Shown piece by piece: positions 25,883 to 49,773 of a stretch of 64,000 bases of DNA (its first letter is position 1; each line of letters begins with the position of its first letter). This DNA is from Minisyncoccota bacterium (GTDB lineage: Bacteria > Patescibacteriota > Minisyncoccia > Phycocordibacterales > JABAAK01). Both the position numbers and the translations under genes were made by a program. The stretch is from contig OY764332.1 in assembly GCA_963668425.1 (NCBI GenBank), positions 105,241 to 169,240 on the forward strand, given 5' to 3'. Below the pieces are notes generated by a model. The model was given only the letters and a program-made list of their open reading frames with translations, was not told the origin of the DNA and made no database searches.

Positions 25883-27667
25883 ATGGCAACACCAAAAAGA
25901 AGTTACAAAAAACCACGTCCAACACGACAAAAAGGCAAAGCAGCCCCCATCAAAAAAGCAAAAAAAGTATTTATCCCGAAGCCAAATCGGGGTGAGATTC
26001 GTGCGCTTGTGTTCGGCGGTATATCAGAAATCGGCAAAAATATGTACGGTATTGAATACAACAATAACATTGTGCTATTGGAGTGCGGCACTATGTTTGG
26101 CGAGAGCAACACCCCTGGCGTGAATACCGTGATGCCGAATATTCAATATCTTAAAGATAGAAAACAAGATGTTAAAGCGCTCGTTGTAACGGACGCTTCA
26201 ATGAAGCATATCGGTGCTATTCCGCATGCTATTCGTGATATAGGAAGCCCGACAATATATGCCAGAAAACTTACCAAGGCAATTATAGAGAATCATCAAA
26301 GCACCCTTCGTAAAAAATCAACCCTAACATTTCACGAAGTAGAAAAAGCGGAGTCAGTTACTATTAACGACGATATTACTCTTCACTTTTTTGGTGTTAC
26401 CGACAACACACCGAGCACTCTTGGTGTGCTTGTAGAAACTTCTTCTGGCTGTGTTGCCTATACCGGCAACCTAAAGGTGAGTCACAACAAAGAGGTTATT
26501 CGTGCTGAAGAGGAAAAGGTATTTCAGGCAGCAAAGGAAAAGGAGGTTGTTCTTTCTCTCGCTGATTCAGTAGGATCAGAACGTCCTGGCTTTGCCATCA
26601 CCGATGATGAGATTGCTAAAGAAATTGATCAGATGATGCAAGAGGCACCGTATCGTGTGATGACACCTCTCTTCCCTTCTCAGATAAAAAGGAATGCAAT
26701 GATATTGGAAAAAGCTCTCCGAGCAGGTAAAAAAATCTATGTAGAAGGATCACTCCTGTTGGAAAATCTTCAAACTGCTTCTGACCTTGGTATAGCCCAG
26801 ATACCGAAAGAAGCCCTCATTCCTATACAAGAGATGAAAAAAGAAGAGGATGACTTGAAAAAAGTATTTATTGCTTTTACTGCCCAAGAGAATGAGATCT
26901 GTGAGGCATTAGAAAGCATTTCTCGAGAAAGTTATCGGCATACTTCTGTCATTACAAAAGATACTATTATATTTCCTTCACCAATGATCCCCACAAATGC
27001 ACAAGCGATTCAAAACCTTAAAGACCGCCTTTCCCGTCTTGGCGCAATAACCCGATCCTATGATACTAGCGATGTTAAAGGCAGTGGACATGCTAATAAG
27101 AGTGAGTTGCGTTGGATGCACCAACTCCTCAATGCGAAATTCTTTATCCCTCTGCAGGGTTACCACTATATGTTGAATGCACATACTCATATACTTCGCG
27201 AACTCGGTATGAGTCAGGATTCTTTTGTTATACCGGAAAATGGAACAATAGTAGATATTAGCCCAGATGGTCAGGTGATTAAAAAACAGAAACAACAAAT
27301 GGAAACTACTGCGGTATCCATTGACGGACATACTCTCGCTCCGATACAGGAAGTTGTGATACAAGACAGGAACACTCTTTCCCAAGAGGGTATATTTATT
27401 ATCATTGTTTTCATTGACCGCAAAACTTTTGAGGTTAAGAAATCTCCTGACATTATCTCTCGTGGCTTTATATACTTGCGAGAGTCGCAAGATCTCATTG
27501 CGCGTGTCCGGATTGTTATTAAAAAAGCTGCTGAAAAAGAAGCGGAAGAAGCCGGTCAAATAGAAATTGATAAAATGAAAAAAGTAATACAAAAAGAAGT
27601 CCAAACCTTTCTGGTGAACGAGACCAGCAAACGACCGATTATTGTTCCTGTTATATTCACTCAATAA
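25883..27667 (+). CDS. RNase J-like metallo-beta-lactamase/beta-CASP protein with degenerate motif II (likely non-catalytic paralog)
   Basis: Collinear with the downstream RNase J (GGISEIGKNMYGIEY, SGHANKSEL motif C). HxHxDH is replaced by VTDASMKHIG. Basic N-terminal tail. Confidence 0.8.
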   Translation: MATPKRSYKKPRPTRQKGKAAPIKKAKKVFIPKPNRGEIRALVFGGISEIGKNMYGIEYNNNIVLLECGTMFGESNTPGVNTVMPNIQYLKDRKQDVKALVVTDASMKHIGAIPHAIRDIGSPTIYARKLTKAIIENHQSTLRKKSTLTFHEVEKAESVTINDDITLHFFGVTDNTPSTLGVLVETSSGCVAYTGNLKVSHNKEVIRAEEEKVFQAAKEKEVVLSLADSVGSERPGFAITDDEIAKEIDQMMQEAPYRVMTPLFPSQIKRNAMILEKALRAGKKIYVEGSLLLENLQTASDLGIAQIPKEALIPIQEMKKEEDDLKKVFIAFTAQENEICEALESISRESYRHTSVITKDTIIFPSPMIPTNAQAIQNLKDRLSRLGAITRSYDTSDVKGSGHANKSELRWMHQLLNAKFFIPLQGYHYMLNAHTHILRELGMSQDSFVIPENGTIVDISPDGQVIKKQKQQMETTAVSIDGHTLAPIQEVVIQDRNTLSQEGIFIIIVFIDRKTFEVKKSPDIISRGFIYLRESQDLIARVRIVIKKAAEKEAEEAGQIEIDKMKKVIQKEVQTFLVNETSKRPIIVPVIFTQ

Positions 27668-27673
27668 GTACCA

Positions 27674-29614
27674 ATGCCTATGATAGAAAAAAAACAACGC
27701 ACAACTACTAAAAAAACAACTGATGACACCGCCAAGAGCGCAAGCATAAAGAGTAAAGATACACCCGCAAAGAAAAATGTGTCAAAAAAACAAGTTGCCA
27801 AACCAAACGACACGCAAAGGAAAAAAGTACCGTCTGGACTATACCAAAAACCTATTCGTCGCCAAGGTGGACTCATCGGCTCACGCGAGCTTACTACTGG
27901 GTTTGATGCAGAATCAACTCTTAACATCCCTCAGCAAGAGAAAGGCGGGATCCGTGTTCTCTTCTTTGGTGGTGTTGGAGAAATCGGCAAAAACATGTAT
28001 GGCATTGAGTATGAGGATGATATCATTCTTTTGGACTGTGGTATGAAGTTTGCCCAGAATGATACTCCTGGTATTGATTTTATTGTTCCTAATGTCCAGT
28101 ACCTTGAAGAGCGGAAAGAAAAGATACGAGGGCTTGTTATTTCTCACGCCCACCTTGATCACGTTGGTGGCATATCAGTTGTTATGAACAGAATCGGCAA
28201 TCCTCCGATATTCTCCCGCAAATTGAGTATTGAACTTATTAAAAATAGACAAAAGGAATTTGAGAACAAGGATGCGATTAAATATCATGAAGTGGAGAAA
28301 AGCACCGTACTTAAACTCGGTGAGAATATGACACTCACCTTCTTCTCAGTCACCCACACTATCCCTGATTCAATGGGGATAGTTGTAGACACTCCCATCG
28401 GCGCGATTGTATTTACCGGTGACCTCAAGCTCACTCATGAGGATGGCGTTGTTGGTCCTGACGAAGTTGCAGAATTTGCGGGAATCAAAAAGAAAAATGT
28501 CCTTCTCACCATGGCAGATTCAACTAATGCGGAACGGCCTGGTTTCTCCTTGCCTGAAAAACGTGTTGTGGAAACTATCGGCAAGATAATTAAGGAAACC
28601 AAAGGCAGAATTATTCTTTCTGCGTTCTCAACTCAAATAGAGCGCACTATTAGGGTTATTGAGCATGCTATTGATAGTGGCAGAAAAGTGATTGTACAGG
28701 GCAGATCAATGATCACTAACCTGACTATTGCATCGGAATTAGGTCTTCTCAAGATGCCTCTCAGCTCTATCATCCCCGCAGACAAAATGGGTGACTATCC
28801 GAAAGACAAGATACTTATACTCGCAACTGGCGCTCAAGGAGATAATTTCGCTGCGATGGATAGGATGTCCCGTGGCACCCATCGACATATTAAACTAGAC
28901 CCTAAAGATACTGTTGTCTTTTCTTCTTCAATTATTCCCGGCAATGAAGAGCCCGTGCAAAATCTTAAAGATCGTCTTTCCAAACTTGGTGTTGACCTTA
29001 TCACGTATCAAACAAGTGATGTCCATTCCAGTGGACATGCTAATCGGGATGAACTCAAATGGATACATGAAAATATCGGTGCAAAATTCTTTACTCCGAT
29101 TCATGGTTACCATTTCATGCTCTCCGCCCACGCTCAAATACTTCGCGATATTGGCATGCCTGAAGAAAATATCATCCTTCCTAATAATGGATGTATTGTT
29201 GACATCAGTCCAGATGGTAAAGCAATCACCATGCAGGATTACACCATGCCAACAGAAGTTATAGTTGTGGACGGTAATGCTGTCGGTACTGCACAAACAG
29301 TTGTTTTGAATGACAGGATTACTCTTAAAGAAGAAGGTATCTTTGTTGTCATTGTGCTCATCAACAAACGACTTAAGAAGGTCAAAAAATCTCCCGATAT
29401 TATCTCTCGTGGTTTTGTCTATCTTAAGGAATCTCAACAATTTATCAACCGATCTCGTATGGTAGCCCGTCGCTCTGTGGAACAAACCCTTCGGAAAGAC
29501 AGAATGATAAATCTTGACACTATCAAACGAAATCTTGTTCGTGAAACACAAAACTATCTCTATACTGAAACTAAAAAACGCCCCATCATTGTTCCCGTCA
29601 TCTTTATCTCTTAA
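27674..29614 (+). CDS. rnj: ribonuclease J
   Basis: ISHAHLDHVGG (motif II), TGDLKLTHEDG, SSGHANRDEL (beta-CASP motif C). Long basic N-terminal extension. Confidence 0.85.
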   Translation: MPMIEKKQRTTTKKTTDDTAKSASIKSKDTPAKKNVSKKQVAKPNDTQRKKVPSGLYQKPIRRQGGLIGSRELTTGFDAESTLNIPQQEKGGIRVLFFGGVGEIGKNMYGIEYEDDIILLDCGMKFAQNDTPGIDFIVPNVQYLEERKEKIRGLVISHAHLDHVGGISVVMNRIGNPPIFSRKLSIELIKNRQKEFENKDAIKYHEVEKSTVLKLGENMTLTFFSVTHTIPDSMGIVVDTPIGAIVFTGDLKLTHEDGVVGPDEVAEFAGIKKKNVLLTMADSTNAERPGFSLPEKRVVETIGKIIKETKGRIILSAFSTQIERTIRVIEHAIDSGRKVIVQGRSMITNLTIASELGLLKMPLSSIIPADKMGDYPKDKILILATGAQGDNFAAMDRMSRGTHRHIKLDPKDTVVFSSSIIPGNEEPVQNLKDRLSKLGVDLITYQTSDVHSSGHANRDELKWIHENIGAKFFTPIHGYHFMLSAHAQILRDIGMPEENIILPNNGCIVDISPDGKAITMQDYTMPTEVIVVDGNAVGTAQTVVLNDRITLKEEGIFVVIVLINKRLKKVKKSPDIISRGFVYLKESQQFINRSRMVARRSVEQTLRKDRMINLDTIKRNLVRETQNYLYTETKKRPIIVPVIFIS

Positions 29615-29706
29615 ATGCACCCCCCCTATTGCTCACTGCACCACAACACTGAACAACTGAAAGCAATGTCTGGTGTCAATCGCTCTATCAGTTTGCACCA
29701 CTAGGG

Positions 29707-30543
29707 TTAGGAACATCCGTTTTGTGCGTCTGTCGCCTTTGTGCTTATCAAACCTGTTTTATATACATCAATACTCCGTGTAGCAGTGATGCCGGTTGTG
29801 GCAACAAAAGCAATACGAACCCCCTCATACGTGTCTGAAATTCTCTTTGTTGCGCCGTTCGGCTCAATGGCACTGTAGGTGTATGTTGTCCCGACAACTG
29901 GCATTACATTCACATATACCTCTCGGGTCGGCTGTTCAATTGAAAAATGGATATCAAAATTATTTCGTGCTGTTTTTGTCGCGTCATACCCACTTACGAA
30001 TGGATTGGGAGAGCTACAAAGCATAGAATCGGAAGCGCAGCTCTGGTCGCTGTTCAGCACCAACTGCTTTCGGGTATATCGTGGAGCGGCGTCAGCGTCT
30101 ATAAAGCATACGTCAACAAAATATTGTTCGGCTGTCTCCAATGAAACGGTCGATGATCCTGGCACCTCTCCATCCCGTGCAGTCGCGAAATTAGACCCTT
30201 CAGCAAAACCGGCAAACGGTCCGGCTGCCCTTTCAAGACGAAAATCCTTTAGGATTCCGTCCCGCACCTTTATACGCACCACCTGAAACCCCTGTGTCGG
30301 CAGCACTGTGTTTTGCGAGAACGTTTCTGCGGAGCCGGAACGCTCTTGCGCAAACCGAATATATTCTCCTAACTCATCAACTCGTATCCGTAGCAGTGAA
30401 TGGCTTGTAAATGATGCGTAGTTAACAAACACCACCCCCACAATAATCCCCATGATGGCAATGGAAACTAATACTTCAATCAGTGTAAACCCCCCATCAT
30501 CACCCCCACGCAAAGAAAAAAAACGCACAGCGGACATATGCAA
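29707..30543 (-). CDS. type IV pilin-like protein (minor pilin/pseudopilin-like)
   Basis: Prepilin N-terminus GFTLIEVLVSIAIMGIIVGV after a short leader. Large variable C-domain. Confidence 0.75.
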   Translation of the reverse strand: MHMSAVRFFSLRGGDDGGFTLIEVLVSIAIMGIIVGVVFVNYASFTSHSLLRIRVDELGEYIRFAQERSGSAETFSQNTVLPTQGFQVVRIKVRDGILKDFRLERAAGPFAGFAEGSNFATARDGEVPGSSTVSLETAEQYFVDVCFIDADAAPRYTRKQLVLNSDQSCASDSMLCSSPNPFVSGYDATKTARNNFDIHFSIEQPTREVYVNVMPVVGTTYTYSAIEPNGATKRISDTYEGVRIAFVATTGITATRSIDVYKTGLISTKATDAQNGCS

Positions 30544-30558
30544 GTAGTATACCTTGAC

Positions 30559-31005
30559 CTACATCACGGTAGTGATGTCGTCTACCTGACTTCCCTGCTC
30601 CATTTGTGACGGCTGATATTTAATCGCATTCTGATAAAGATATGCAGGCATGCGGACACAAACAATAATCACAAAAACAATAAGCCCTCCCACCAAATGC
30701 TTTTTTGCTGACTGCCGCTCTCTTTCTAAGAAACGAAATATCAGAAAAAATATGAAAATAACAAACGGAGATATCATAAGAGCAGCCAGCATCGCTCCTT
30801 TAATAGGGCTCTGCAACAGGTCTTCCTTAAGGAATAATGTCAAATAATCTGATAAAAGACCACCACCAACACCCAACAATACACCAAGGATTAACAAAGC
30901 AATGTCTCTTTGTATATCGCCCTGCTGTGACATATTTTTATCGTTATGCATCTTTTTAGTTTTTTCGTTGCTCATTATTTTTAATTTTACACTATACCGT
31001 TGCAT
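30559..31005 (-). CDS. hypothetical membrane protein (paralog of 32075..32467)
   Basis: 148 aa, three or four TM segments. The C-terminal codons and 3' flank (41 bp CAAGTAGTATACCTTGACCTACATCACGG...) are shared with the paralog. Confidence 0.55.
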   Translation of the reverse strand: MQRYSVKLKIMSNEKTKKMHNDKNMSQQGDIQRDIALLILGVLLGVGGGLLSDYLTLFLKEDLLQSPIKGAMLAALMISPFVIFIFFLIFRFLERERQSAKKHLVGGLIVFVIIVCVRMPAYLYQNAIKYQPSQMEQGSQVDDITTVM

Positions 31006-31059
31006 ATTGCAATATACAAGCGTGCCGTACCTGAGTAACGTACTTGTTGCGTTAGATTA

Positions 31060-31803
31060 TTGCTCCCAAGTATGAAATTGACTTGGTTTTGTATATGTAC
31101 TAACATACTGAACATGAATAATAATTCCTACCAAAAACCAGAGTTCCGGAAAGATGGCTTTCATTGTTCCTTTTGTGGTATATATGCCAACCATGACTGG
31201 AAAAATCTTTTTCTGGCAGAGCGTCTGGATTATGGGAATGAGTGGAAACCAATTTCAATATCATCTCAATGTGACCACTGCAAGAGATATGCCCTATGGA
31301 TTCCTAGTGAGGGGGGTGAGTGGCATATGGTTTATCCAAGAAAAATGCTTTCCCCTCTGGCGCATTCTGACATGCCAGGGTTAGTGAAAGCATTATATGA
31401 AGAGGCGAGAAGTATATCAGACCAATCACCAAGAGCAGCTGCTGCCTTATTACGATGCGCTCTTGAAAGGTTAACTGAGCACCTTGGAGAAAAAGATGGT
31501 TCGTTATATGCAAGAATTGGAAATCTGGCTCAGAAAGGTTTGCCAAAGATGGTTTTAAAGGCGTTAGATATTGTACGTATCACCGCAAACGAAGGCGGTT
31601 CTCATTGTGGAGAGATTGATTTGACAGGAAAAGACGGAAAAGAGGTTGTTGACAAATTGTTTTTGTTGGTGAACTTCATTGTTGAAAAAACAATTACAGA
31701 GCCCAAAGAAGTTACTATGATGTTTTTGGACCTGCCTGAAAGCAAGAAAGATGGTGTGCGAAATAGGGATAATAAACATGAAAAGAAGATAGAAAATGAG
31801 TGA
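31060..31803 (+). CDS. DUF4145 (HEPN-clan-like) domain protein
   Basis: AAAALLRCALERLTEHLG...LAQKGLPKMVLKALDIVRITANEGGSH is characteristic of DUF4145. Confidence 0.6.
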   Translation: MLPSMKLTWFCICTNILNMNNNSYQKPEFRKDGFHCSFCGIYANHDWKNLFLAERLDYGNEWKPISISSQCDHCKRYALWIPSEGGEWHMVYPRKMLSPLAHSDMPGLVKALYEEARSISDQSPRAAAALLRCALERLTEHLGEKDGSLYARIGNLAQKGLPKMVLKALDIVRITANEGGSHCGEIDLTGKDGKEVVDKLFLLVNFIVEKTITEPKEVTMMFLDLPESKKDGVRNRDNKHEKKIENE

Positions 31804-32074
31804 GATATTGGTATAGAGTAACAAAAAAATAACCGATAAATATTACAGATTGCTCTGGAAAAGAATTTAATTAATGGTATTAAAATACCCGAAATTGAAA
31901 ATGGGTCTTCCTTTATTAATACTAATGTCCTTGTCAACCCAACCCAGCCCAGCTTTGGGAGGTAAGCCAGATCCAGATCCTGCGTATAGAATATACGACG
32001 GAAACCTGTCTATGGTTTCGTTTATTGTTTCCATTTTTTGTTTTTGTGGTTGCATACAAGTAGTATACCTTGAC

Positions 32075-32467
32075 CTACATCACGGCAGTAGTGGCGTTGC
32101 TGTATAGGTACATAAACGTGAGAGCGCAGATAAACACGGTAAAGAACAAATAACATTTCCAATCACTCTTCCAGGCCGACACTAAGAAATCAGACATGTT
32201 TTGACCTTCTTCTGCCTGATAGAGATTTAACAACAAGAATATAAAAGTAGAAAATAGGAAAACCATAAAAGTAGTAATGATTGAATTTAAAAAAGGGTTT
32301 TTTAATAACATGTCCCTTGAGAATATTGTTAGGTGGCTTCCAACATAGCCGCCTACTACACCCGCTAATATACCCATCACAAAAAGAGTGTTTTCCTTAA
32401 AAGTGAGTTTTTCTTTTTCCTGAATAGCGGATTCTCCCCTTTCAATGTTTTTATCTGTCTTACTCAT
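32075..32467 (-). CDS. hypothetical membrane protein (paralog of 30559..31005)
   Basis: 130 aa. MGILAGVVGGYVGSHLTIFSRDMLLKNP parallels LGVLLGVGGGLLSDYLTLFLKEDLLQSP in the paralog. Confidence 0.55.
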   Translation of the reverse strand: MSKTDKNIERGESAIQEKEKLTFKENTLFVMGILAGVVGGYVGSHLTIFSRDMLLKNPFLNSIITTFMVFLFSTFIFLLLNLYQAEEGQNMSDFLVSAWKSDWKCYLFFTVFICALTFMYLYSNATTAVM

Positions 32468-32998
32468 AGATGTATTTTTTGTTTTTTTGAGTACGGATGC
32501 TTTCTTGGATTGCCGCTCTTCTTCTCCTTTTACCCTCGCCTAACACTACCCTCACCCAGTTTTCCAACGGTGCTATGTTGTGATGGATCATTGCTGTACG
32601 AATACTCGGATGAACTGATGCACAACAGGCGGTGGTTCCAAATATCATCAAAACCGCTATAATATAAACTACAATTTTGTTTGGTAAATTGTTTTTATTA
32701 AAATTTATTATCGATACCTTTAGTATACATCACCCTGTGAAAACCGCAAGACGCAAAAACAAGCGAGTTATTCTCACTTGTTTTTTATTTATTTTTCTTT
32801 ATAGATGACAAATAGTATTAAATAGCGATATTTTTCTTATGTTAATAGTATATCCTACAACTGTTGCGCAAGAGCAAATGTTTGCTTTTTAAACAATGAT
32901 CGTTTATACTACTGGTAGTTTAGTAGAAGAGTTCCAGGCCCATTGGGATATCTGGGCTCTTTTCGTTTTAATACGTCATCATCAGGCACTATAGACAT

Positions 32999-33436
32999 AT
33001 GTCTCTTTGGAAAAAAATTAAAAATGTTATTCTTGGATCTTTGCTTTTTCCTCTCAAAGAGTATGGTCTTGCACTCAAGATTTGTGTAGGAAACATGGCA
33101 GCTTTACCATTCCTGGTAACTGTGGCTTACTATGTGGAGAAATCGGGTCGGGAAATACCCCTTGACTTTATATCCGTATTGCTCAAAACCTTCTTCATAT
33201 CTTTCACTTGCTATCTATGCCTTATTTTTGGAAAGATTTTTCGTAATCGGATTCTTATTATTTTTTCTGGTTATCTTCTTTTTTCTATTCTTTTTATTTA
33301 TGTTATAATTTGGGTACATCTGTATGGAATGGTGTGTAATATTTCAAAGATGAAGACAGAACAGAGCGTAGTAAATCGTTATTCAGCTAAGGCTTTTTGC
33401 CTCCCGCACACCACATATGCACATCTCTTTTTATAA
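32999..33436 (+). CDS. hypothetical polytopic membrane protein
   Basis: 145 aa, four predicted TM helices. Confidence 0.45.
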   Translation: MSLWKKIKNVILGSLLFPLKEYGLALKICVGNMAALPFLVTVAYYVEKSGREIPLDFISVLLKTFFISFTCYLCLIFGKIFRNRILIIFSGYLLFSILFIYVIIWVHLYGMVCNISKMKTEQSVVNRYSAKAFCLPHTTYAHLFL

Positions 33437-33529
33437 AAGTAACACAAAAAGAAAAATACACGGAGTTTTCCGTGTGTTTTTCAGATGAGTGAGCGCACTC
33501 TGGTTGTGTTACTTACACTAGGCAGATTT

Positions 33530-34057
33530 TTATGTGCACCTCGGATTGCTTCCACTTGTGCTGGCAGGACTTCCGTTCAACGACCCCAAGAACCCGTTAT
33601 AGTCCGTGCAGTAGATATCGTTCCCACTACCTCCTGTTCCATCAGCGTCTGGCAATGCACCCCAAACAACCCATTTACCACGGTTTGCATAACAACAAAT
33701 CTCTCCTGCTGAAACTCCTGATTTCAATCCGCTTGTGCCAATAAGGTCGCCCTTCGCACACACAGCACTTCCATCCCATTTATCCCAACTGTCTTTTTGA
33801 CCAGAGATTTTTTCGTAGATGTTGTCGCACAAAGTATCTCCGGTGAGGTTTGTGTTTATTGCGGTTTCAGCAAAAGCCAGTGTGCGGATACTGGACACTC
33901 CCAATTTTGCACTGCTCTTTCCAGCGTTTCCTGTCTGAGTGCCGATGGAAACGATTACCGTTGTGGCAAGGACACCGATGATTGCGATAACAATAAGAAG
34001 TTCTATAAGGGTAAATCCTTTACTGCTATTGAGATTTTTCCTGTAGTAGTTTTTCAT
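33530..34057 (-). CDS. type IV pilin (paralog 1 of 3)
   Basis: KGFTLIELLIVIAIIGVLATTVIVS prepilin motif. Cys-containing variable C-domain. Confidence 0.85.
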   Translation of the reverse strand: MKNYYRKNLNSSKGFTLIELLIVIAIIGVLATTVIVSIGTQTGNAGKSSAKLGVSSIRTLAFAETAINTNLTGDTLCDNIYEKISGQKDSWDKWDGSAVCAKGDLIGTSGLKSGVSAGEICCYANRGKWVVWGALPDADGTGGSGNDIYCTDYNGFLGSLNGSPASTSGSNPRCT

Positions 34058-34077
34058 ACAGTGATCTTTATTGTTCA

Positions 34078-34647
34078 TTACTCACAACTTTCAATTGTGG
34101 CGGCATTACTGTTACCTACCACCCCCTCTCCTTTTTTGACTGTCTTGTTGTTTCTGGTATCATTGCCACTATTGGCAAGAGTAAACTTACCTAAAAATCC
34201 ACCGCTGTCAGCACAATACACCTCACCGGTGCCTGCCCCGTTGCCGCTTAACTTTGCCCACAGTACCCATTTTTCATTTTTTGATGAACAACATATCTCT
34301 CCAGCAACACCAGCAACACTATCGGCTTTACATATTTGATTAGCGTCAGTACCTTCATTCCCCCAAGTCCACTTGGTCTTCTCACCAGAGACCTTTGGGT
34401 ATATCTCATCGCAGACACCATTGGCACCGTAGCCACCCCCAATAACTGTTACGGTCGCAATAGTCCTCAAACTGGACACACCACTTTTTACTGAGGAGAT
34501 TTGTGCCTTCTCTGTTTGACTTCCCAGTGAGACCACGACCGTTGCCGCCAGCACGCCTATGATTGCGATGACAATAAGCAACTCGATTAAGGTAAATCCT
34601 TCGCTGTGCCTCGTGCCACTAAAGTTTTGCTGCCATATTTGCAACAT
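34078..34647 (-). CDS. type IV pilin (paralog 2 of 3)
   Basis: EGFTLIELLIVIAIIGVLAATVVVSLGSQT is identical to the next paralog through the N-terminal helix. The C-domain is divergent. Confidence 0.85.
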   Translation of the reverse strand: MLQIWQQNFSGTRHSEGFTLIELLIVIAIIGVLAATVVVSLGSQTEKAQISSVKSGVSSLRTIATVTVIGGGYGANGVCDEIYPKVSGEKTKWTWGNEGTDANQICKADSVAGVAGEICCSSKNEKWVLWAKLSGNGAGTGEVYCADSGGFLGKFTLANSGNDTRNNKTVKKGEGVVGNSNAATIESCE

Positions 34648-34659
34648 ACAAGTGCTTTA

Positions 34660-35199
34660 TTACTTGCACGTTTCAAGCACCACATCTGCGTCACTTCCGT
34701 CACTTTTTACCACGCTTTTGGCACTGGCACTATCTTGATCAAGCGTAACACTTCCTGCAAACCCAGTGCTGTCTGCACAGTAAACTTTTCCGGTTTCGGC
34801 TGCTCCCCAGAGCACCCACTTTTCAGGACTACTGCCTGTAGCGGCTACTGATGAACAGCAAATCTCACCACCTCCAAGCGGCTCATTTGCTTTACACTCA
34901 GCAGCAGGAGTGGCCTTGCCCCAAGTCCAGTCATCCTTTTCTCCCGAAACTTGCGGAAGTATTAGTTCACAAACCTTGTCGTTAACACCAAGTGATGTGT
35001 TACCAACTTTGCCCTCAACAACTGCAATTGTCGCAAGGTTTCTAATACTGGATACGCCGATCTTTACCGACCCCTGCTGGGCTTTATCTGTTTGCGAGCC
35101 AAGAGAAACGACCACTGTCGCCGCCAACACTCCGATGATTGCAATCACAATCAGCAATTCAATCAGTGTGAATCCTTTTTTGTATTTTTTATTAAACAT
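34660..35199 (-). CDS. type IV pilin (paralog 3 of 3)
   Basis: MFNKKYKKGFTLIELLIVIAIIGVLAATVVVSLGSQT. Classical short basic leader. Confidence 0.85.
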   Translation of the reverse strand: MFNKKYKKGFTLIELLIVIAIIGVLAATVVVSLGSQTDKAQQGSVKIGVSSIRNLATIAVVEGKVGNTSLGVNDKVCELILPQVSGEKDDWTWGKATPAAECKANEPLGGGEICCSSVAATGSSPEKWVLWGAAETGKVYCADSTGFAGSVTLDQDSASAKSVVKSDGSDADVVLETCK

Positions 35200-35407
35200 A
35201 CTTAAATATTACTTATAATTATTAACGTTTTTAGTGTACCATCCCCCAAAATCCCCACCACACCACCCCTGTGGATAACCACCACCTACCCTTTTCCGCC
35301 AAAAATTTCTATTGTTTGGCACATCTATGACATAAAACTACCTCAACTAGTAATACCCTCTGTAAAATAAGTATTGAATTATATTTCGTTTGTGCCATAA
35401 TTCATTT

Positions 35408-36226
35408 ATGAACCAGGAAAATAAAGTTAACAAAGATGATTTAAAGAAGGTTGGAAAAATAGGATTTGAGCACAATGGGAAAAAATATAACCTGTTTCGC
35501 TATTTTTGGTCTCCAGACAAAGCGGAAGGAGATCTTGAAATAGCAATAACCATTCCTAAAAAATATACAAACATTACAGATAGTGTTTATTATCTTAAAA
35601 GGTTGCGTGCTGGAAAAGTTGTAGAAAGGCATAAAAGTTACTCAAAACTTCTTAAAATAAGTTTTCATAGTAGTGGTGCATATCATATTTCTGGGGAAAA
35701 CATGCCAAACAGAAGTAAAAACCCTTATGCGATGGGAGCATCATTTGGGGGATATTCTGGTGCACCACTTGGTTTCATGTACACAGATGACTTATCATCA
35801 TTTATGCATAGTGGGAATATAACCGATGATTTAAACACACGCTTTATTGTTGACAGCGGGCACTCAACTATTTTCGTTGCACTGTATAGAGTAGAAAATA
35901 CTTTATACAGGAGAAAAGACGGTATGGGCATTGCTGAAGAACTTAGAGATCATATCATTAGCAGTCTTGAAAGAGACAAAGATAGAATTGGCATATGTTT
36001 GGAAGACCCTTACTTTATTCCGCTAGATTATCCAGGGAACACAGACCATATATTCCTACTAGCTTGCTTCCGTGGAAATCCCAAACCAAAAGAAATAATG
36101 GAAGGAACTTTTGTCGGAACATATGCCTACGAGGCAGATGGCGATGCCTTGTCCCTGTATGTTAACAGAGATGATGAGAAAGTTCCTGAAATCAAGCGGC
36201 GCCCCAGGATACCGCTTGCATTTTAA
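35408..36226 (+). CDS. hypothetical protein
   Basis: 273-aa ORF (MNQENKVNKDD start), no recognised motif. Confidence 0.45.
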   Translation: MNQENKVNKDDLKKVGKIGFEHNGKKYNLFRYFWSPDKAEGDLEIAITIPKKYTNITDSVYYLKRLRAGKVVERHKSYSKLLKISFHSSGAYHISGENMPNRSKNPYAMGASFGGYSGAPLGFMYTDDLSSFMHSGNITDDLNTRFIVDSGHSTIFVALYRVENTLYRRKDGMGIAEELRDHIISSLERDKDRIGICLEDPYFIPLDYPGNTDHIFLLACFRGNPKPKEIMEGTFVGTYAYEADGDALSLYVNRDDEKVPEIKRRPRIPLAF

Positions 36227-36245
36227 CAAGTGTTACGTTTTCAAT

Positions 36246-36446
36246 ATGGTTGGTAGTGTTTCTGGCATCGCACTATTCGCATTACTTATAGTACCGCTAA
36301 CAGTGTTGTTGGTGAATACCCTCTTTAGATTGTGGGAATATGCTTTTGATAAATCAGTTCGTTTTGCCGCTATTTTATCTTGCACAATCCCCTTAGTGTT
36401 GCTTGCAGAGTTGCTTTGTTGGGCTAGACTGTTTGGGTGGTATTAG
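36246..36446 (+). CDS. small 2-TM protein, 3' portion shared with 43306..43641 (left direct repeat)
   Basis: LFRLWEYAFDKSVRFAAILSCTIP is identical to the paralog. About 95 bp of DNA identity (36322-36416 vs 43515-43609). Confidence 0.5.
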   Translation: MVGSVSGIALFALLIVPLTVLLVNTLFRLWEYAFDKSVRFAAILSCTIPLVLLAELLCWARLFGWY

Positions 36447-36451
36447 TTTTA

Positions 36452-37147
36452 TTACTGTATCTTATTCATCCCTCCGCTAACAGCATTAGCGACAATTTCA
36501 AGCGGTGTACCCATTTTATCTTCTTTTGTGTGTGGAGGGGTTGTGATAAATTCAACAACTTTACTGGCTAGCAAAGGTCTTATCTCTTGATCTTCAACAC
36601 TTCTGAGTACATTATAGTAACTTTGTGCTAACACTTGTCTATGCTTCATATCAATAAATAAATTTCTGTACAAAGAATATTGCCTGGCACAAAAGTAGAG
36701 AGCGTAGACCGCAACACCAGTTATGGTCAATCCGCTCAACCGAAATTCCCAACTGATGTTATATTTCACACAGTAAAAAAAATACAGAACAGAGATAGCG
36801 AAAGTCATCAATACCATAAATGTAGTTGCTCTGAGCCATTTATCACGATCCTCCCTATACCCAGATCCGGCTTTTTCAAAAGCATCAGCTAATTTCTTCG
36901 TCTGAAAGATGTCTATTTGTTTTTTTAGAGAGACATTCTTGTCAGACAGATTGTCCACCTCAGACCGCTTTGATTTTATTTCGTTTGTTAAATTTCCTAT
37001 TTCAGTATCTTTGTTCTTATTCTCTTCCCGAAGTGATTCACGCTCCTCCTCAAGTGCTTTGACCTTTGCATCTAAGTGCTCAATTTTACCTTCTTTTCCA
37101 CTCAAGAGCTGCTCCCAATACTCCCTATTTCTTCTTTGTGCGTTCAT
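36452..37147 (-). CDS. coiled-coil membrane protein, candidate effector partner of the OLD-family ATPase
   Basis: 231 aa from ATG 37147: N-terminal coiled-coil, two TM helices, 80-aa C-domain. Directly downstream of the ATPase gene. The TGTATAAT motif sits 12 nt upstream of the ATG. Track start 37264 is an alternative. Confidence 0.55.
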   Translation of the reverse strand: MNAQRRNREYWEQLLSGKEGKIEHLDAKVKALEEERESLREENKNKDTEIGNLTNEIKSKRSEVDNLSDKNVSLKKQIDIFQTKKLADAFEKAGSGYREDRDKWLRATTFMVLMTFAISVLYFFYCVKYNISWEFRLSGLTITGVAVYALYFCARQYSLYRNLFIDMKHRQVLAQSYYNVLRSVEDQEIRPLLASKVVEFITTPPHTKEDKMGTPLEIVANAVSGGMNKIQ

Positions 37148-37301
37148 ATACCCAATTATACACCAAGCGATAACAGTGCACCATATCCCCGCCTGAAATA
37201 CAACAATCGCACAAACCAGCGACCGTCTCGGACAACCACCCCACGCACAACACAAAACTCTCACTCCTGTTTTTTAAGCACTCTCTTATCTATTCAAGCC
37301 C

Positions 37302-38408
37302 TCAAGAGGTGGGCTTCTGTTGGAGTATGTCTCGCAGGTATTTTATTGCACCTTTCTTTACATCTTCAGTAATTTCAGGTGTTTGCTTACCAGTTTCTCT
37401 ATTAGATTTTTTTGTTTTATGTGCCACACCTCTCCTTATATCAAAAATTTTGATGTCCTTTATTTCTTCTTTTTTGAATTTAACTTCTGTTTCAGGTTCC
37501 TCTGCCTTTTGATATAATTGTAAAAAATAATCTGTTGAAACTACGCCAAAAATCAGATAGTTAATCTCTGCATCTGATCTGTAATTCAATACGCCAAATT
37601 TATCCTCCATCTCTTTCACATCAGTTGAATAATTTTTCTCAGGATTTCTAAACACTTCATAGATTTTCTGCCCACTGCCAAGCTCTATGAAATATGGATC
37701 GTGTGTGCTGATGATAATGTTGATGTTGTTGTTTTTGCTACGGGATAGAGTGGAGAGCGCTTCGTACAGACTCTTTTTTAAGCGTGGATGCAGGTATATT
37801 TCTGGTTCTTCAAACAAAATAAATATTTCATCATCACTTACACCGACCTTCCCTAGTTCTTGGATTACAGAAGCAACAATGAGACGTTGTGTCCCTTGAC
37901 TCGCATCTCCGATTGCCAAAGGTGATGAATCTTTTGATTTGTCATGCGTGTCTAACACTTTTGCTTCAAGCACCTTCTTTACAACGGCATCATGAATGGA
38001 TTTTTTTACATCATCTTTAGTAAGCTTCTTCTGAGTTAGTTGCAATTCGGCACCAATAACATCAAAATTTTTGAAGGTTTCTGATATGCTACTAAATAAT
38101 TCGGTTATTTCCTTGTAATTTATTTTAGGCATACTTTTAACTGTTATATTTATAAGTTCAGCGATGGCAGAATGCATAGGGTCAGAAATGGCACTAGTCT
38201 TCATTTGCTCCTCTGCATTAATTTTTTCTGCGGGTATATAAATAACTTTTCCTGCCTTGCTTTCTTTTATCTTCTTTTGTATCGCATTCATTAAATGAGT
38301 TTTCCCGGCATTATTTTCTCCAGCAAATATCGTATAAGGGGCAAGGTCAATCCCATCAATTTTCTCTGTAATACTACTGTCCTTCTGTGGAGATATGGTT
38401 ATTTTCAT
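37302..38408 (-). CDS. OLD-family ABC-type ATPase (AAA_15/AAA_21-like), no TOPRIM
   Basis: Walker A FAGENNAGKTHLMNAI, long coiled-coil insert, D-loop/Walker B region ILFEEPEIYLHP, and H-loop IIISTHDP typical of OLD/PtuA/GajA-like ATPases. Confidence 0.75.
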   Translation of the reverse strand: MKITISPQKDSSITEKIDGIDLAPYTIFAGENNAGKTHLMNAIQKKIKESKAGKVIYIPAEKINAEEQMKTSAISDPMHSAIAELINITVKSMPKINYKEITELFSSISETFKNFDVIGAELQLTQKKLTKDDVKKSIHDAVVKKVLEAKVLDTHDKSKDSSPLAIGDASQGTQRLIVASVIQELGKVGVSDDEIFILFEEPEIYLHPRLKKSLYEALSTLSRSKNNNINIIISTHDPYFIELGSGQKIYEVFRNPEKNYSTDVKEMEDKFGVLNYRSDAEINYLIFGVVSTDYFLQLYQKAEEPETEVKFKKEEIKDIKIFDIRRGVAHKTKKSNRETGKQTPEITEDVKKGAIKYLRDILQQKPTS

Positions 38409-38530
38409 ATAGTTTCAGTATACCAAGCAGTGTCGGAATTTCAAAATGTTCTTTGCCATCTTCTTGCATGTTTTTTCTTGTATTTTGTCTATATCGTCAT
38501 CTACAGATTGCACAAACCTCACCTATTCCA

Positions 38531-38568
38531 ACGCAAAACGGTTAAAAGGGTGTCTATAGCAATCGCGC
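38531..38568. repeat. 38-bp conserved element B, copy 1, upstream of the ATPase gene
   Basis: CAAAACGGTTAAAAGGGTGTCTATAGCAATCGCGCCAC, identical to 42226-42263. Confidence 0.8.
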
Positions 38569-38646
38569 CACCACCACTTTTCATCAAAACCAACACACAG
38601 CATAAAACTACTCCCCTCTTTATACATTCCTACATTTTTTAAACCT

Positions 38647-39117
38647 TTAGTCCGTTTTATTCATTGACTGCCTTTTAAACTCCTTATAGTTTATACAAGA
38701 AAATCTTTTTTCTAGGAGCGCCTTCTGTAATTTCTTGTCATTTGTCACGCAAGTGTACTCACCGGGATAACGTTCTACAGCGGCCATTATGTGTGCGTCA
38801 CATATACCTCTTCCGTTCATTATGTCATATTCAATATTAGTAGCAAATGCAGATTTTAAGTGCCCAGCGAACTGAATGTCACTATTGGTTTTTATAATAT
38901 TATTTTGGGGTATACTGCTCCACAATTTATGACGATTTTGAATATCTCTCTCTTTCTCCTCTGGTGAAATATCTTTGGCAATATTAATGTAATCGTGTAT
39001 AAATTCTTTTTTACATACTCCAACAGTGTATATAGACATAAAATCAATACGTTCCTCAAAATTATTTTCCTCGCTTAATTTAACTAGGGCACAGCTGTCA
39101 AAAATGAATTTGTTCAT
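38647..39117 (-). CDS. PIN-like domain protein
   Basis: N-terminal FIFDSCALV and C-terminal GICDAHIMAAVERY...CVTNDKKL follow the PIN acidic-residue pattern. 4-nt overlap with the upstream gene. Confidence 0.5.
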   Translation of the reverse strand: MNKFIFDSCALVKLSEENNFEERIDFMSIYTVGVCKKEFIHDYINIAKDISPEEKERDIQNRHKLWSSIPQNNIIKTNSDIQFAGHLKSAFATNIEYDIMNGRGICDAHIMAAVERYPGEYTCVTNDKKLQKALLEKRFSCINYKEFKRQSMNKTD

Positions 39118-40319
39118 AGGCCATGTTCACGCTTAACATTGCGCAAAAACAATCTAGCATCCTTTTTGTCGCCACTAAAAGAAATAAGGTTCGCTGTTTC
39201 TTTCTCCCCCACCTTATTAAGATTACTACTAAGTAATTCCTTCGGATAAAAATGAGCAAATGCTTTCATCAAAGATTGACCCCCTTTGCTTTTCTTTTTT
39301 TTCGTTTCATCAGATGGACTAGTCGGTCTTTCTTCACAGATACTCACATACCTTTCTTTATCACTCTTACAGAACAAGAACCATACTAAGAAGGAGGGTG
39401 AAACACCGTAATCTTTTGCGAGCAACTTTGCGTCCTCCCATGAAACAATTTTCTCCTGTAATTGCTTGATTTCTTTATCATCAAAAAGAAGAAAGCCCAC
39501 AAAATCAAATGATTCGTTTTTTATTTCCCTGTATTCGTCATTGTGATACAAAGCAATGGCATTGCTACCAATGCCAATTGAGTGTAACAATGCCAATGCG
39601 GTTACTATCCTTCTCTCAAAAGAAATTATTTTTGAATTTACCAATATTGCAGCAGATCTACCTGATTCAGAAATCACAGACAAGCCGTCAAATGTAGCGC
39701 TATCAGGTAGTTTTTCAGGCATGACGCCGTTTCTATTGTGTGACCTGAACACTGGCACGCCGACACCATTTATTTTTTCCATTACGTAATTGAATCTTTG
39801 ACTGGGCTCTTTGATTGATCGAAATTCTGACAGGGTAAGGTTAAGTATCTCTCTCACTGTCACTGCAGCATCCCATGGACTTTTTTTGTGCAGAAGTCCA
39901 ATAAAATTACCGTTCTCCACCCCATAACTGATATTGTTTGATATGTATTGGCTTATCCTTTGAAGTGAATACTGTTCAGCGCCTCCACCACTCCTTATAT
40001 GGCCATAATATTTTACATTTTCCATCCTATACTTCTCCGCTTTAATAATTTTTTCCTCTGGCACAAAAATGTATGACCATTTTTCTTTGAATATTCTTTT
40101 TAAATCAGAAAATGTAATATCATTGCGAGTACCATCTCTAATCTGTCTTATAATCCCAGGCGTTTTTTCTGTTCCTAGCCCCCTTTTTATGTTGAATACT
40201 TTGTGCAAACGCAAAATTATATCTTTTGGAACACTAAAATGAAACGCATTCCTATAGTAGACATCAATCATACTAACATCTAAGGTGTGTATAAAGAGTG
40301 TTTGTTGTTTTGTTTTCAT
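39114..40319 (-). CDS. hypothetical 401-aa protein translationally coupled to the PIN-like gene
   Basis: No HExxH or nucleotide-binding motif found. Operon partner of the PIN-like protein. Confidence 0.45.
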   Translation of the reverse strand: MKTKQQTLFIHTLDVSMIDVYYRNAFHFSVPKDIILRLHKVFNIKRGLGTEKTPGIIRQIRDGTRNDITFSDLKRIFKEKWSYIFVPEEKIIKAEKYRMENVKYYGHIRSGGGAEQYSLQRISQYISNNISYGVENGNFIGLLHKKSPWDAAVTVREILNLTLSEFRSIKEPSQRFNYVMEKINGVGVPVFRSHNRNGVMPEKLPDSATFDGLSVISESGRSAAILVNSKIISFERRIVTALALLHSIGIGSNAIALYHNDEYREIKNESFDFVGFLLFDDKEIKQLQEKIVSWEDAKLLAKDYGVSPSFLVWFLFCKSDKERYVSICEERPTSPSDETKKKKSKGGQSLMKAFAHFYPKELLSSNLNKVGEKETANLISFSGDKKDARLFLRNVKREHGL

Positions 40320-40384
40320 ATTTGTTTGAAAAAAGCCACAATATTACTTGTGGCTCTTGTGTTCCCGCCCATGTATTTGGTCGT

Positions 40385-40594
40385 TTAATAGTTCCTTGTT
40401 GCGTCCCTGATAGAGTAGGCGGACACAAAGTCACGTGTCTCTTTTAAGGAGACCAAACGGCTTGCGACATCTACTGTTTTCACACCCTCAGTGGACATTA
40501 TCTTGACGATACTATCCTCCATCTCCTTCTTTTTCTCCTTAAGAGTGCTCAATGTATCACGTATATCCAAGTATTCTTTTATTTGTGTTTTCAT
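40385..40594 (-). CDS. small hypothetical protein (69 aa, charged/coiled)
   Basis: Short ORF downstream of the small hydrophobic ORF. Confidence 0.35.
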   Translation of the reverse strand: MKTQIKEYLDIRDTLSTLKEKKKEMEDSIVKIMSTEGVKTVDVASRLVSLKETRDFVSAYSIRDATRNY

Positions 40595-40603
40595 GTTTTT
40601 TTG

Positions 40604-40771
40604 TTAAAAATGCAAAGTCACTCCGAACAGTCCAAACACAAATACTGAAACAGACATTATAATCGTTGCCAGCACCAACTGAATGAACCCAATAAGGAGT
40701 AACCCCAATAACGCTTCAGCGCTTTCGATAGTAAAAAGCGTGCTAAAAATAAAGTCCTTTTCCATATGCAT
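40604..40771 (-). CDS. small hydrophobic 2-TM peptide (55 aa), not in the ORF track
   Basis: Hand translation: MHMEKDFIFSTLFTIESAEALLGLLLIGFIQLVLATIIMSVSVFVFGLFGVTLHF. Confidence 0.3.
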   Translation of the reverse strand: MHMEKDFIFSTLFTIESAEALLGLLLIGFIQLVLATIIMSVSVFVFGLFGVTLHF

Positions 40772-40944
40772 TTTGTTATCTTAATAATATCCGCCGTTAG
40801 GTAGACGGGGCTTCAGGAACAGTATATATCAGTGTCGGCTGGTACGCAAATGCACGATTAATCGTGTATTTACCGCGCCCCTTCTTTACCTTATTTTTGG
40901 GTTGAACCTTGCCCTCTGGTTATAGTCCGGTTTGGGTATTGAAA

Positions 40945-42171
40945 TCAATGATTTTTGTAAGCATCATAGTAACGTTGCATATCGTTTGTATTAACATTTT
41001 CTAATCCAGCCGCCCATCCCACTCTCTTTACTATATCAAAAAGTGATTCAGTATAATTCTTTTTAAGATTCTGATACATGATTGTCTCTGTAAGATTAAT
41101 GGAGTCATCAACTGAGCCATTATTAAAAGGTTCCTCGGTCTTTAAACTTAAGTTTGTTTCATTAGGGATGTTTCCAAATGGAACATTTTCAATATTGTCC
41201 AGTGATACCTTTAATTCAAGAAAGCCCCAGTACCCAATCTCTGCATAAAACTCTATGGCTGACGCGAGGAATAGATCAAGGCGAGATAATAAGTGCCCAA
41301 GATGAAAAACATCATGCCCGCCTTCTGTGTCTTTTTTAGAACGAATTTTTGTTTTGTGATAGTAAAAACCATATTGATTCAGTTCATCGTAGAGCAATCC
41401 AAGAATAGAGTGCTGAAAAAGCCGACAAAACCCATGTTGCACTGGTGAAAATATACAGTCGGAATTGTTGCGTGGGAGTGGAAACTGGACGACGCCCCAT
41501 CTACTAACCTGCATCTTTGTTAATATATTATTAGGGAGTTCCTGGTAGTCAGCCAGTATGTCAAATGGATACAGCGGGACAATACTGAAAGAGGTATCTA
41601 TACACCTTGGGTCTTGTTTGAACCTTTTACATAACACAACAGATCTTTCCTTTGCGGATTGATAAAAAGATTCTTTTAATTCAGTGGATTTTTTGCGCTT
41701 TTCAGTAAGCCAAAGTATCCTGTCAACATTTGCCAACTCTTCTGGCTCGTTGCTTGTATCAGTCCTGATATACACCTTTGTATTGTCTTTGATTGCGTGC
41801 GGTGTTGTATCGCTTTGCGGTACCCTGATCACAATCAAAGCATTCTCTTCCTTTTCATCTGAACAAATTTGCACTTCAGGGAAAATCGGAGGGGTGATTC
41901 TTCCAAGCACAATATTATTAATTCGCTCCCGTAGACCCTTTTTATAAGCAATACCCTGTACAGGCAATTCTGGTGTACTATCTTTGTCCTCAACACCAAT
42001 TATAATAACCCCTCCCCATGTATTAGCCATAGCAGCCATGGTTTTTGGCAAACTTGCATTATTGATTTCTCGTTTGTAATCAAGATGTATTGATTCTCGG
42101 TGTTTTTCTTCGCAGAAATCAATCACATCCTGATAGGTGATTTCTTCAATTTTTTTGGTGTATAGCAACAT
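40945..42171 (-). CDS. AlbA_2 (Schlafen-like divergent AAA) domain protein
   Basis: N-terminal YQDVIDFCEEKHRESIHLDYKREI...MANTWGGVIIIGVEDK resembles PF04326. C-terminal 270 aa unknown. Element B lies 55 nt upstream. Confidence 0.55.
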   Translation of the reverse strand: MLLYTKKIEEITYQDVIDFCEEKHRESIHLDYKREINNASLPKTMAAMANTWGGVIIIGVEDKDSTPELPVQGIAYKKGLRERINNIVLGRITPPIFPEVQICSDEKEENALIVIRVPQSDTTPHAIKDNTKVYIRTDTSNEPEELANVDRILWLTEKRKKSTELKESFYQSAKERSVVLCKRFKQDPRCIDTSFSIVPLYPFDILADYQELPNNILTKMQVSRWGVVQFPLPRNNSDCIFSPVQHGFCRLFQHSILGLLYDELNQYGFYYHKTKIRSKKDTEGGHDVFHLGHLLSRLDLFLASAIEFYAEIGYWGFLELKVSLDNIENVPFGNIPNETNLSLKTEEPFNNGSVDDSINLTETIMYQNLKKNYTESLFDIVKRVGWAAGLENVNTNDMQRYYDAYKNH

Positions 42172-42225
42172 ACTTTACTGTACCCTAATTTGACCTTTTT
42201 TATCAAGGGCAAGGTTTGCCCCATG

Positions 42226-42263
42226 CAAAACGGTTAAAAGGGTGTCTATAGCAATCGCGCCAC
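42226..42263. repeat. 38-bp conserved element B, copy 2, upstream of the AlbA_2 gene
   Basis: Identical to 38531-38568. Followed by an ATCTCAACCAATGACAACC motif that recurs at 43731. Confidence 0.8.
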
Positions 42264-42407
42264 TTACGATTAGATTCTTGGTTGAAATACAGCAATTATC
42301 TTGCCACACCATTTACGACCTGGCACCATCTCAACCAATGACAACCTTTCTTTGTAAAAGAGATTTTTGTTTAGTGCATGGATTTAATAATCTAGTGCAA
42401 CAGTAAA

Positions 42408-43190: not shown

Positions 43191-43305
43191 TTTGTGTACG
43201 CATAGTGTAGTATATTTTTGTGTTTCAGGCAAAAGAAATTTTGTTCAATCTTGGTATTTTCTAAATGTTCGGAGGTTGGATTGTGAAGTATAATCTAAAC
43301 ATACC

Positions 43306-45425: not shown

Positions 45426-45550
45426 ATTTATTTTGTAATTACCTTGTAAGAGGTGGTAGGACTTTCAGTTATGTTTACCAGTATACCGTTGAATACATCA
45501 GTAATCTTTTCAGCCCTGCTGGTGTGTGATATACTACTAATTGAAACTAA

Positions 45551-45748: not shown

Positions 45749-45754
45749 CGAGAA

Positions 45755-49755: not shown

Positions 49756-49773
49756 ATTTGTAGTATAGAGGGG

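Follow-up and report, generated by a model that had tools for sequence, protein, structure and literature searches.

The pilA gene of Pseudomonas aeruginosa belongs to a 'pilin island', of which groups I-V are distinguished and which carries tfp accessory genes, and Neisseria varies the C-terminal part of its pilin at pilE/pilS. Among Patescibacteria, or Candidate Phyla Radiation (CPR), pili are thought to be central to host attachment, DNA uptake and phage attack, with experiments done almost entirely on Saccharibacteria. Two pilus systems, with PilA1/PilA2 and minor pilins, have been dissected in Nanosynbacter lyticus TM7x (PMC11623550), and according to one proposal the clade-specific diversity of patescibacterial pilins mirrors host specificity (PMC7739484). 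Two reports link PilA diversity in P. aeruginosa to pilus-specific phages (10.64898/2026.03.17.712343; 10.1101/150227). In the literature that we searched, no description of strain-level mosaic pilin hypervariability was found for Patescibacteria. Here we analyze three tandem type IV pilin genes, A1, A2 and A3, at 33530-35199 of a 64,000-nucleotide stretch of a Minisyncoccota genome (contig OY764332.1, positions 105,241 to 169,240; hereafter the window). The nearest named relatives of the FtsZ encoded in the window belong to Candidatus Kaiserbacteria (82% and 78% identity), which points to a Kaiserbacteria-like patescibacterial genome. In the reading that we consider probable, one transcript carries three variants of a major pilin, and strains exchange alleles of these genes by homologous recombination while balancing or diversifying selection acts on them. 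It is well established that recombination makes pilin alleles hypervariable in Pseudomonas, Neisseria and other bacteria, and the present case would carry this principle over to a Kaiserbacteria-like lineage and to differences between strains rather than reveal a new mechanism.

The three genes are minus-strand open reading frames (ORFs) whose boundaries agree exactly with a preliminary description of the region. A1, the promoter-proximal gene (34660-35199), encodes 179 amino acids and has the leader MFNKKYKKG directly followed by FTLIE. A2 (34078-34647; 189 amino acids) starts 12 nucleotides (nt) downstream of the A1 stop. The longest ORF of A3 (33530-34078) encodes 182 amino acids, and the start is probably Met8 (34057), which gives 175 amino acids, since the A3 orthologues (MKN...) and the database entry P0065 begin there. 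The spacers between the pilin genes measure 12-20 nt, and a consensus scan alone placed a terminator-like hairpin with a T-run, the probable end of the operon, 55 nt past the A3 stop (33448-33475, minus strand). Because of these short spacers, in particular that between A1 and A2, and of the hairpin after A3, the genes likely form a single co-transcribed operon.

All three products match PF07963 (N_methyl) above its cutoff, with E-values from 6e-10 for A1 to 2e-8 (38.7, 33.8 and 34.7 bits for A1, A2 and A3; cutoff 21.2), and the NCBIfam model TIGR02532 (30-36 bits; cutoff 16.3). Class III signal peptides consist of a short basic leader ending in Gly, with Phe at +1, Glu at +5 and then about 20 hydrophobic residues. 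This is the arrangement of A1 (MFNKKYKKG followed by FTLIELLIVIAIIGVLAA), and the core is the same in A2 and A3. The 29-residue N-terminal helix GFTLIELLIVIAIIGVLAATVVVSLGSQT is encoded identically, at the protein level, by A1 and A2, and that of A3, GFTLIELLIVIAIIGVLATTVIVSIGTQT, departs from it at four positions. The preliminary description was right about the identical helices and about a third paralog differing by a few residues, but it called the identical pair left-most, which holds only on the coding strand, as the pair has the higher coordinates. It had also reported differing Cys positions; in our alignment all six Cys are homologous in the three paralogs, and they are invariant or at least 90% conserved in an 85-member family.

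The comparison of the operon comprised three close strains, namely the window and two contigs from one sample (L001 and L002), together with three to four strains at a greater distance, and every sequence set against the window is a metagenome contig. Among the source metagenomes, ERZ21861969 contains two alleles. Between the window and L002 the amino acid identity is 99.8% for RNase J1, 99.2% for RNase J2, 99.1% for a solute-binding protein, 98.9% for a large pilin-like protein and 99.2% for a 130-residue membrane protein, and it falls to 87.9% in A3, 78.7% in A2 and 74.3% in A1. The same trend is seen with L001, where a 145-residue membrane protein is 100% identical and three upstream genes 97-98%, and A3, A2 and A1 share 86.9%, 83.2% and 78.3%. 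A1 is the most variable of the three pilins between strains (74-78%). When synonymous sites are considered, the number of substitutions per site (dS, Nei-Gojobori) is mostly 0.01-0.05 in the flanks, with 0.09 for the 130-residue membrane protein against L001, and 0.27-0.64 in the pilins (0.43-0.44 in A1), whose overall ratio of nonsynonymous to synonymous rates (dN/dS) is 0.19-0.51. Synonymous divergence is high even in invariant codons of the N-terminal helix alpha1, where the proportion of synonymous differences (pS) is 0.27-0.46.

The divergent block has sharp edges, one about 30 nt past the A1 start codon and the other at the A3 stop, beyond which the identity between window and L001 returns to 90-100% across the gene for the 145-residue protein. 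Within the block, variable positions concentrate after alpha1, in the loops that separate the conserved Cys motifs and in the C-terminal tail. This is the configuration of an allelic island, with deeply diverged pilin alleles at one site between near-identical flanks. Since relaxed constraint raises dN and not dS, the tenfold synonymous excess does not come from faster amino acid evolution. The excess is limited to three coding sequences, and the alleles are therefore much older than the strains that carry them, having been imported or maintained by recombination.

Overall, 303 sites of the operon separate L001 from L002 with the window matching one of the two. Along these sites the window alternates between L001-like and L002-like states in long runs, the longest of 23 and 21 sites, and a runs test on the three sequences was significant by permutation, as was an excursion test (p<=1e-4 each). 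Runs of this length require recombination and not drift. In A1, for example, positions 35020-34956 are L002-like (23:2 sites) and positions 34954-34660 are L001-like (66:17), with the switch adjoining the conserved VSGEK-WTW motif. A compatibility test of the pairwise homoplasy index (PHI) type on six strains returned p=0.007 for A1, p=0.006 for A2 and p=0.06 for A3. We read the pilin alleles of the window as mosaics of the L001 and L002 alleles. The variation anticipated in the preliminary description is therefore found at the population level, where strains with 97-100% identical flanks differ in their pilins at 12-26% of the amino acids. Far from being invariant and free of recombination, the alleles are clearly both divergent and mosaic.

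These data suggest a scenario in which three intact and functional major-pilin-like paralogs, each with a class III signal peptide, would be expressed from one operon. Their alpha1 helices would be constrained, as all three presumably have to be accommodated by one assembly machinery and one filament core. The paralogs of one genome would not recombine with each other; variation would arise between genomes, as co-occurring strains swap whole alleles and sub-genic pilin segments by homologous recombination, with crossovers in conserved flanks and in conserved intragenic motifs. The outcome would be strains that are about 99% identical in the flanks and bear old, highly divergent, mosaic pilin alleles, with the divergence focused on the probably exposed loops and on the C-terminal tail of the six-Cys domain. 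The most likely driver would be balancing or negative frequency-dependent selection on the filament surface, exerted by pilus-binding phages, by host-cell recognition or by both. Selection by phages or hosts would fit the position of the operon inside a defence-gene hotspot. In other bacteria, surface proteins exposed to pressure from phages or hosts vary in a similar way.

Several points weigh against this scenario. The mean dN/dS is below 1, so that positive selection is undemonstrated, and high dS together with mosaicism indicates imported or old alleles but is silent on why they are kept. The PHI-type test gave only p=0.06 for A3, and incompatibility could in part reflect saturation in the distant sequences. 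Misassembly by switching between strains could mimic mosaics; the contig names suggest long-read assemblies. The number of strains compared is small, and when we sought more alleles by scanning JGI metagenome contigs with the conserved element upstream of A1, we obtained 0 hits. None of pilB, pilC, pilD, pilT, pilM, pilN and pilO was found among the window ORFs scanned, and the assembly of A1-A3 into filaments is therefore only inferred. Finally, our search for silent pilin copies covers the 64-kb window of a genome of about 697 kb (the contig has 696,550 bp), and copies may exist elsewhere.

The same divergence data bear on a simpler explanation, functional paralogy combined with neutral or relaxed drift. 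According to this explanation, the three pilins would form separate filaments or have separate functions, for instance in adhesion, motility or DNA uptake. Their exposed loops would diverge because constraint on them is weak, perhaps also because mutation is locally more frequent, and diversity itself would not be selected for. Stable orthologous groups and a dN/dS below 1 are what it predicts, and elsewhere several major pilins serve distinct pili, as in Thermus (PilA4/PilA5; 8qqj, 6xxd) and in TM7x (PilA1/PilA2; PMC11623550). Thermus thermophilus, with its wide and narrow pili, has more than one major pilin in one cell, but its similarity to A1-A3 is limited to alpha1 and its genes form no tandem hypervariable array. 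Drift would however leave unexplained a dS about tenfold above that of the flanks even in perfectly conserved alpha1 codons, block edges that are sharp at coding boundaries, and L001-like and L002-like runs that need recombination. We therefore regard drift without selection for diversity as unlikely, and exchange of alleles between strains as the better account of these genes.

Recombination could also act within one genome. The preliminary description had seen in the tandem genes a cassette-like arrangement, and in antigenic variation of the Neisseria type such copies would act as donor and recipient cassettes, with gene conversion reshuffling their C-terminal domains. Tandem genes with helices identical in protein are what this model leads one to expect, and in two related loci (L003 and L007) the A1 and A2 helices are 84-86% identical in DNA, somewhat above background. 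In the window the helix DNA is only 71-74% identical between paralogs (74% for A1 and A2), and synonymous sites are saturated, pS being mostly near 0.75, and 0.64 between the alpha1 regions of A2 and A3. The longest exact DNA run common to any two paralogs is 11 nt, which is too short for homologous exchange. Following a suggestion of the preliminary description, we aligned the three genes at the DNA level in search of breakpoints; none was found between paralogs, and the synonymous differences are scattered throughout. Since the DNA of the helices differs this much, their identity reflects purifying selection and not gene conversion. Selection on alpha1 is indeed strong, with dN/dS of 0-0.09 against 0.26-0.66 in the globular part (pairs of window, L001 and L002).

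The copies themselves also speak against cassettes. A1, A2 and A3 are all full-length, each with its own start codon, leader and alpha1, and tblastn, queried with the C-terminal domains of 25 members of the family, detected no truncated or silent pilin copies in the window (best E 0.28). A six-frame motif scan of the window returned one further class III signal only, that of a 278-residue gene at 29707-30543. In a neighbor-joining tree of 85 homologs the paralogs of at least six genomes cluster by position and not by genome, in clades with one gene per genome each: A1 with P0002, P0003, P0004, P0006 and P0012; A2 with P0021, P0014, P0017, P0016 and P0011; and A3 with P0064, P0067, P0049 and P0063. 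Tandem arrays of three or four pilin genes occur in six related loci (L001, L002, L003, L005, L006 and L007). Because of these position-specific clades and arrays, of the saturated synonymous sites and of the short shared runs, we take the triplication to be old, with each copy separately kept as an orthologous lineage.

The likeness to Neisseria extends to the DNA upstream of A1, where a G-rich tract (35240-35300, minus strand) holds three runs of four to five Gs. A canonical G-quadruplex (G4) motif, defined by runs of at least three Gs and loops of at most 12 nt, lies upstream of the first pilin gene in three of the seven related loci (L002, L005 and L006), but none is found upstream of A1 in the window. 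As with pilE/pilS, the variation concerns the C-terminal globular part behind a conserved N-terminal helix, and several sequences related to pilins are grouped in or close to a single locus with a G-rich upstream region. Unlike pilE/pilS, the window has no promoterless 5'-truncated silent copies, no shared tracts and no canonical G4, and the variation is between strains and not within a lineage. Intragenomic variation of this kind is therefore improbable here, and exchange between genomes remains our preferred explanation.

The G-rich tract is part of a conserved upstream element. The region upstream of A1 (35200-35315, minus strand), defined by alignments, forms the upstream edge of the divergent block and is probably a promoter or regulatory region. 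Across the roughly 115 nt that precede the A1 start, the three close strains share 95-100% identity per 60-nt window of alignment. The region contains a perfect DnaA-box sequence, TTATCCACA, inside GGTTATCCACAGG at 35268-35280 (minus strand). Each of the seven related loci (L001-L007) has the motif 70-110 nt ahead of its first pilin gene, L004 included, whose pilins sit in another genomic neighborhood. The window holds three DnaA-box copies against 0.64 expected, the other two being at 23234-23246 and 4154-4162 (both minus strand). The sequence may act in regulation or as an anchor for recombination. In L006 the G-rich/DnaA-box element is duplicated (1813-1855 and 3029-3071) and brackets a gene for 296 amino acids, and this duplication suggests that it marks a junction formed by insertion or recombination.

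A last source of diversity to be weighed is hypermutation by a diversity-generating retroelement (DGR), or phase variation by invertible DNA. DGRs have been reported as frequent in CPR, and L007, from a related species, carries a reverse-transcriptase gene (RVT_1, 6172-7362) about 3.5 kb downstream of its four-pilin array. In the window, no reverse transcriptase was seen among the genes scanned against Pfam, which are part of the ORFs, and the 29000-37500 region showed neither a template/variable repeat pair nor flanking inverted repeats, nor a recombinase adjacent to the genes. Moreover, the divergence is gene-wide and includes the synonymous sites of alpha1, instead of being restricted to a short C-terminal variable region. 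Both mechanisms thus appear highly improbable.

Among described systems, the allelic pilA island of P. aeruginosa is the closest analog of the operon. In both cases highly divergent alleles of major, or here probably major, pilins occupy one site between conserved flanks in strains that are otherwise close, with strain-specific small genes adjoining. Here, in contrast, three co-oriented full-length paralogs vary together and the alleles are mosaic within genes; there is no adjacent glycosyltransferase, the six-Cys domain is unrelated, and the surroundings are a defence-gene hotspot. As in TM7x, a patescibacterial episymbiont whose major pilins are highly expressed and whose larger pilin, with an additional domain, is encoded nearby, the pilin genes are clustered close to a larger one and encode small, lollipop-like, probable major pilins rich in Gly, Ala, Ser and Thr (PMC11623550). 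Unlike TM7x, the present genome belongs to a Kaiserbacteria-like class, similarity is undetectable beyond alpha1, and the three paralogs are near-equivalent, while TM7x has one major pilin and dissimilar minor ones. That a genome of about 0.7 Mb retains three probable major-pilin paralogs is of interest in itself, and they are the most divergent genes compared in the region, with recombinant alleles. With its defined set of variable, presumably exposed loops, the locus would offer a testable marker for the host or phage specificity of strains in uncultivated episymbionts.

The assignment of A1-A3 to the major pilins relies on their size and composition. The mature proteins have 161-172 amino acids, short leaders and a canonical alpha1, and Gly, Ala, Ser and Thr make up 39-43% of A1-A3, compared with 23-34% of the cytoplasmic proteins of the window. 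Judged by small size, canonical alpha1 and high content of these four residues, the published distinction between major and minor pilins (PMC11623550), they look like major pilins and not like minor or tip pilins. The preliminary description had proposed variation of the pilus tip. The better candidate for the tip is the larger pilin-like gene, and its conservation between close strains (98.9% identity) argues against that proposal.

An AlphaFold2 model of A1, built from an 85-sequence alignment (mean predicted local distance difference test 82, predicted template modeling score 0.73), has a 50-residue alpha1 helix at residues 12-62, a short helix at 76-84 and four strands within 113-152. The modeled fold is that of a type IV pilin lollipop, with alpha1 on an antiparallel beta-sheet globular domain. 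When the model was compared with the PDB by Foldseek, the globular part had no fold neighbor at E<=1. Sequence matches to pilins in the PDB (Thermus PilA5, geopilin, PilE and others) are confined to alpha1, the best being Thermus PilA5 (8qqj, E 2e-12, over the N-terminal 90 or so residues). More specific families were considered and rejected: scores are 36-39 bits for the pseudopilin GspH (NCBIfam equivalog cutoff 80), 29-38 bits for the pseudopilin GspG (cutoff 88.85) and 23-27 bits for the competence pilin ComGC (cutoff 75), and the score for the Myxococcus PilA equivalog is far under its cutoff. The GspG, GspH and ComGC matches are restricted to the N-terminal 35-50 residues of A1-A3.

An exact look-up of the A1 and A2 proteins returned no record. 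A scan of genome contigs with alpha1 peptide patterns gave mostly generic pilins, by which it was swamped because these patterns alone were used, and the best true relative was 37% identical. When the globular part of A1 was searched on its own by phmmer, only 11 hits at E<=1e-3 were found among 1.84 billion representative proteins, and judging from this search the six-Cys globular domain is therefore specific to a small clade of Patescibacteria. One protein of 1350 amino acids (P0124) matches residues 13-47 of this globular-domain query in seven separate stretches (E 1e-4). The matching region of A1 contains the first conserved Cys and the VSGEK motif, and P0124 may be a repeat protein made of a pilin-derived module.

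Several small genes accompany the operon. The gene for the 145-residue membrane protein (32999-33436, plus strand) is convergent with it and adjoins the array in five related loci. Its product, identical in L001, is 88% identical to that of L002, from which it differs by 17 amino acid changes with few synonymous ones (dN/dS 1.85). It has no Pfam or NCBIfam match and may be a pilin-linked accessory protein. In most of the related loci, tblastn placed a homolog of the 130-residue membrane protein (32075-32467, minus strand) after the pilin array, and this holds also for L004 with its different context. A homolog search returned two near-identical matches only, and it is synteny alone that suggests a tie to the pilins. 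A gene for 222 amino acids follows A3 in L001 and L002 and is absent from the window.

Farther downstream, the preliminary description had noted duplicated membrane-protein modules, a DUF4145 gene and a fourth, larger pilin-like gene, and had read the locus as shaped by recombinational shuffling. The duplication is real, but the two membrane proteins concerned, the 130-residue protein and one of 148 residues (30559-31005, minus strand), are distant paralogs (29% identity, E 4e-16). The DUF4145 gene (31060-31803, plus strand), assigned by Pfam, also matches the single-gene anti-phage system PD-T7-4 in PADLOC (E 1.9e-63). It was inserted together with the gene for the 148-residue protein: the two form a segment of about 1.35 kb that is present in the window and in L001, and L002 has other sequence in its place. 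Direct repeats of 44 nt (30538-30581 and 32054-32097; 89% identical) bracket this strain-variable slot. Together with the variable 222-residue gene, the slot bears out the shuffling of the surroundings. The fourth pilin-like gene (29707-30543, minus strand) also proved to be correctly described: it matches PF07963, encodes 278 amino acids with a GG directly followed by FTLIE, and is a candidate minor pilin by size only. Against L002 its dN/dS is 0.14.

The whole pilin operon lies inside a variable segment that is bounded by core genes, the rnj-rnj pair (25883-29614) on one side and dnaJ-dnaK (48889-51792) on the other, and L005 has the same two boundaries with different cargo. Between the operon and dnaJ, and not part of the pilus, is a defence-rich, strain-variable island (35390-47243). 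It contains an AAA_15 Old/AriA-like ATPase (37302-38408), a Schlafen AlbA_2 protein (40945-42171), a D12 methyltransferase of type II (44544-45425) beside a PDDEXK_11 (PD-(D/E)XK) nuclease (44072-44569), and several genes without family match. The cargo at this position differs in every one of the loci L001-L006, where it includes SMODS with SLATT, AAA_13, M78 with DUF4411, restriction-modification genes, a KAP NTPase and others.

This setting leads us to a broader and more tentative proposal, possible but far from established, that the three-pilin operon serves as a receptor-diversification module of the defence island. In these ultrasmall episymbionts the pilus surface would be the main phage receptor, a host-recognition surface or both, and co-existing strains would swap whole or partial alleles, possibly through pilus-dependent natural transformation, anchored on the invariant DnaA-box/G-rich element and on the downstream flank. 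The pilin 'serotype' and the defence cargo would then turn over together between rnj and dnaJ.

The boundary genes and the rest of the window gave a few further observations. The two RNase J paralogs (25883-27667 and 27674-29614, plus strand) are about 43% identical, and the pair is kept in L002 and L005. In a Pfam scan the first showed the beta-CASP and C-terminal RNase J domains only; for the second, the orthologs in L002 and L005 also carry precomputed Lactamase_B matches. Beyond dnaK lies a DUF3800 gene (51866-52513). The window is chromosomal, with gyrA, rpsA, lepB, ftsA, ftsZ, trxB, rpoD, dnaK-dnaJ, gltX, murG, the tandem RNase J genes and a 16S rRNA gene. The same pilin array is found on related contigs of 647-847 kb, two of which (647 and 662 kb) have names ending in 'c', a hint at circular assemblies. 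An ORF for 392 amino acids at 13719-14897 (plus strand) resembles HisS, with 83 bits against an equivalog cutoff of 287, and may be HisZ-like or a degenerate paralog. The 16S rRNA gene (58129-59590, minus strand) is bacterial and full-length, with an Rfam score of 1372 bits.

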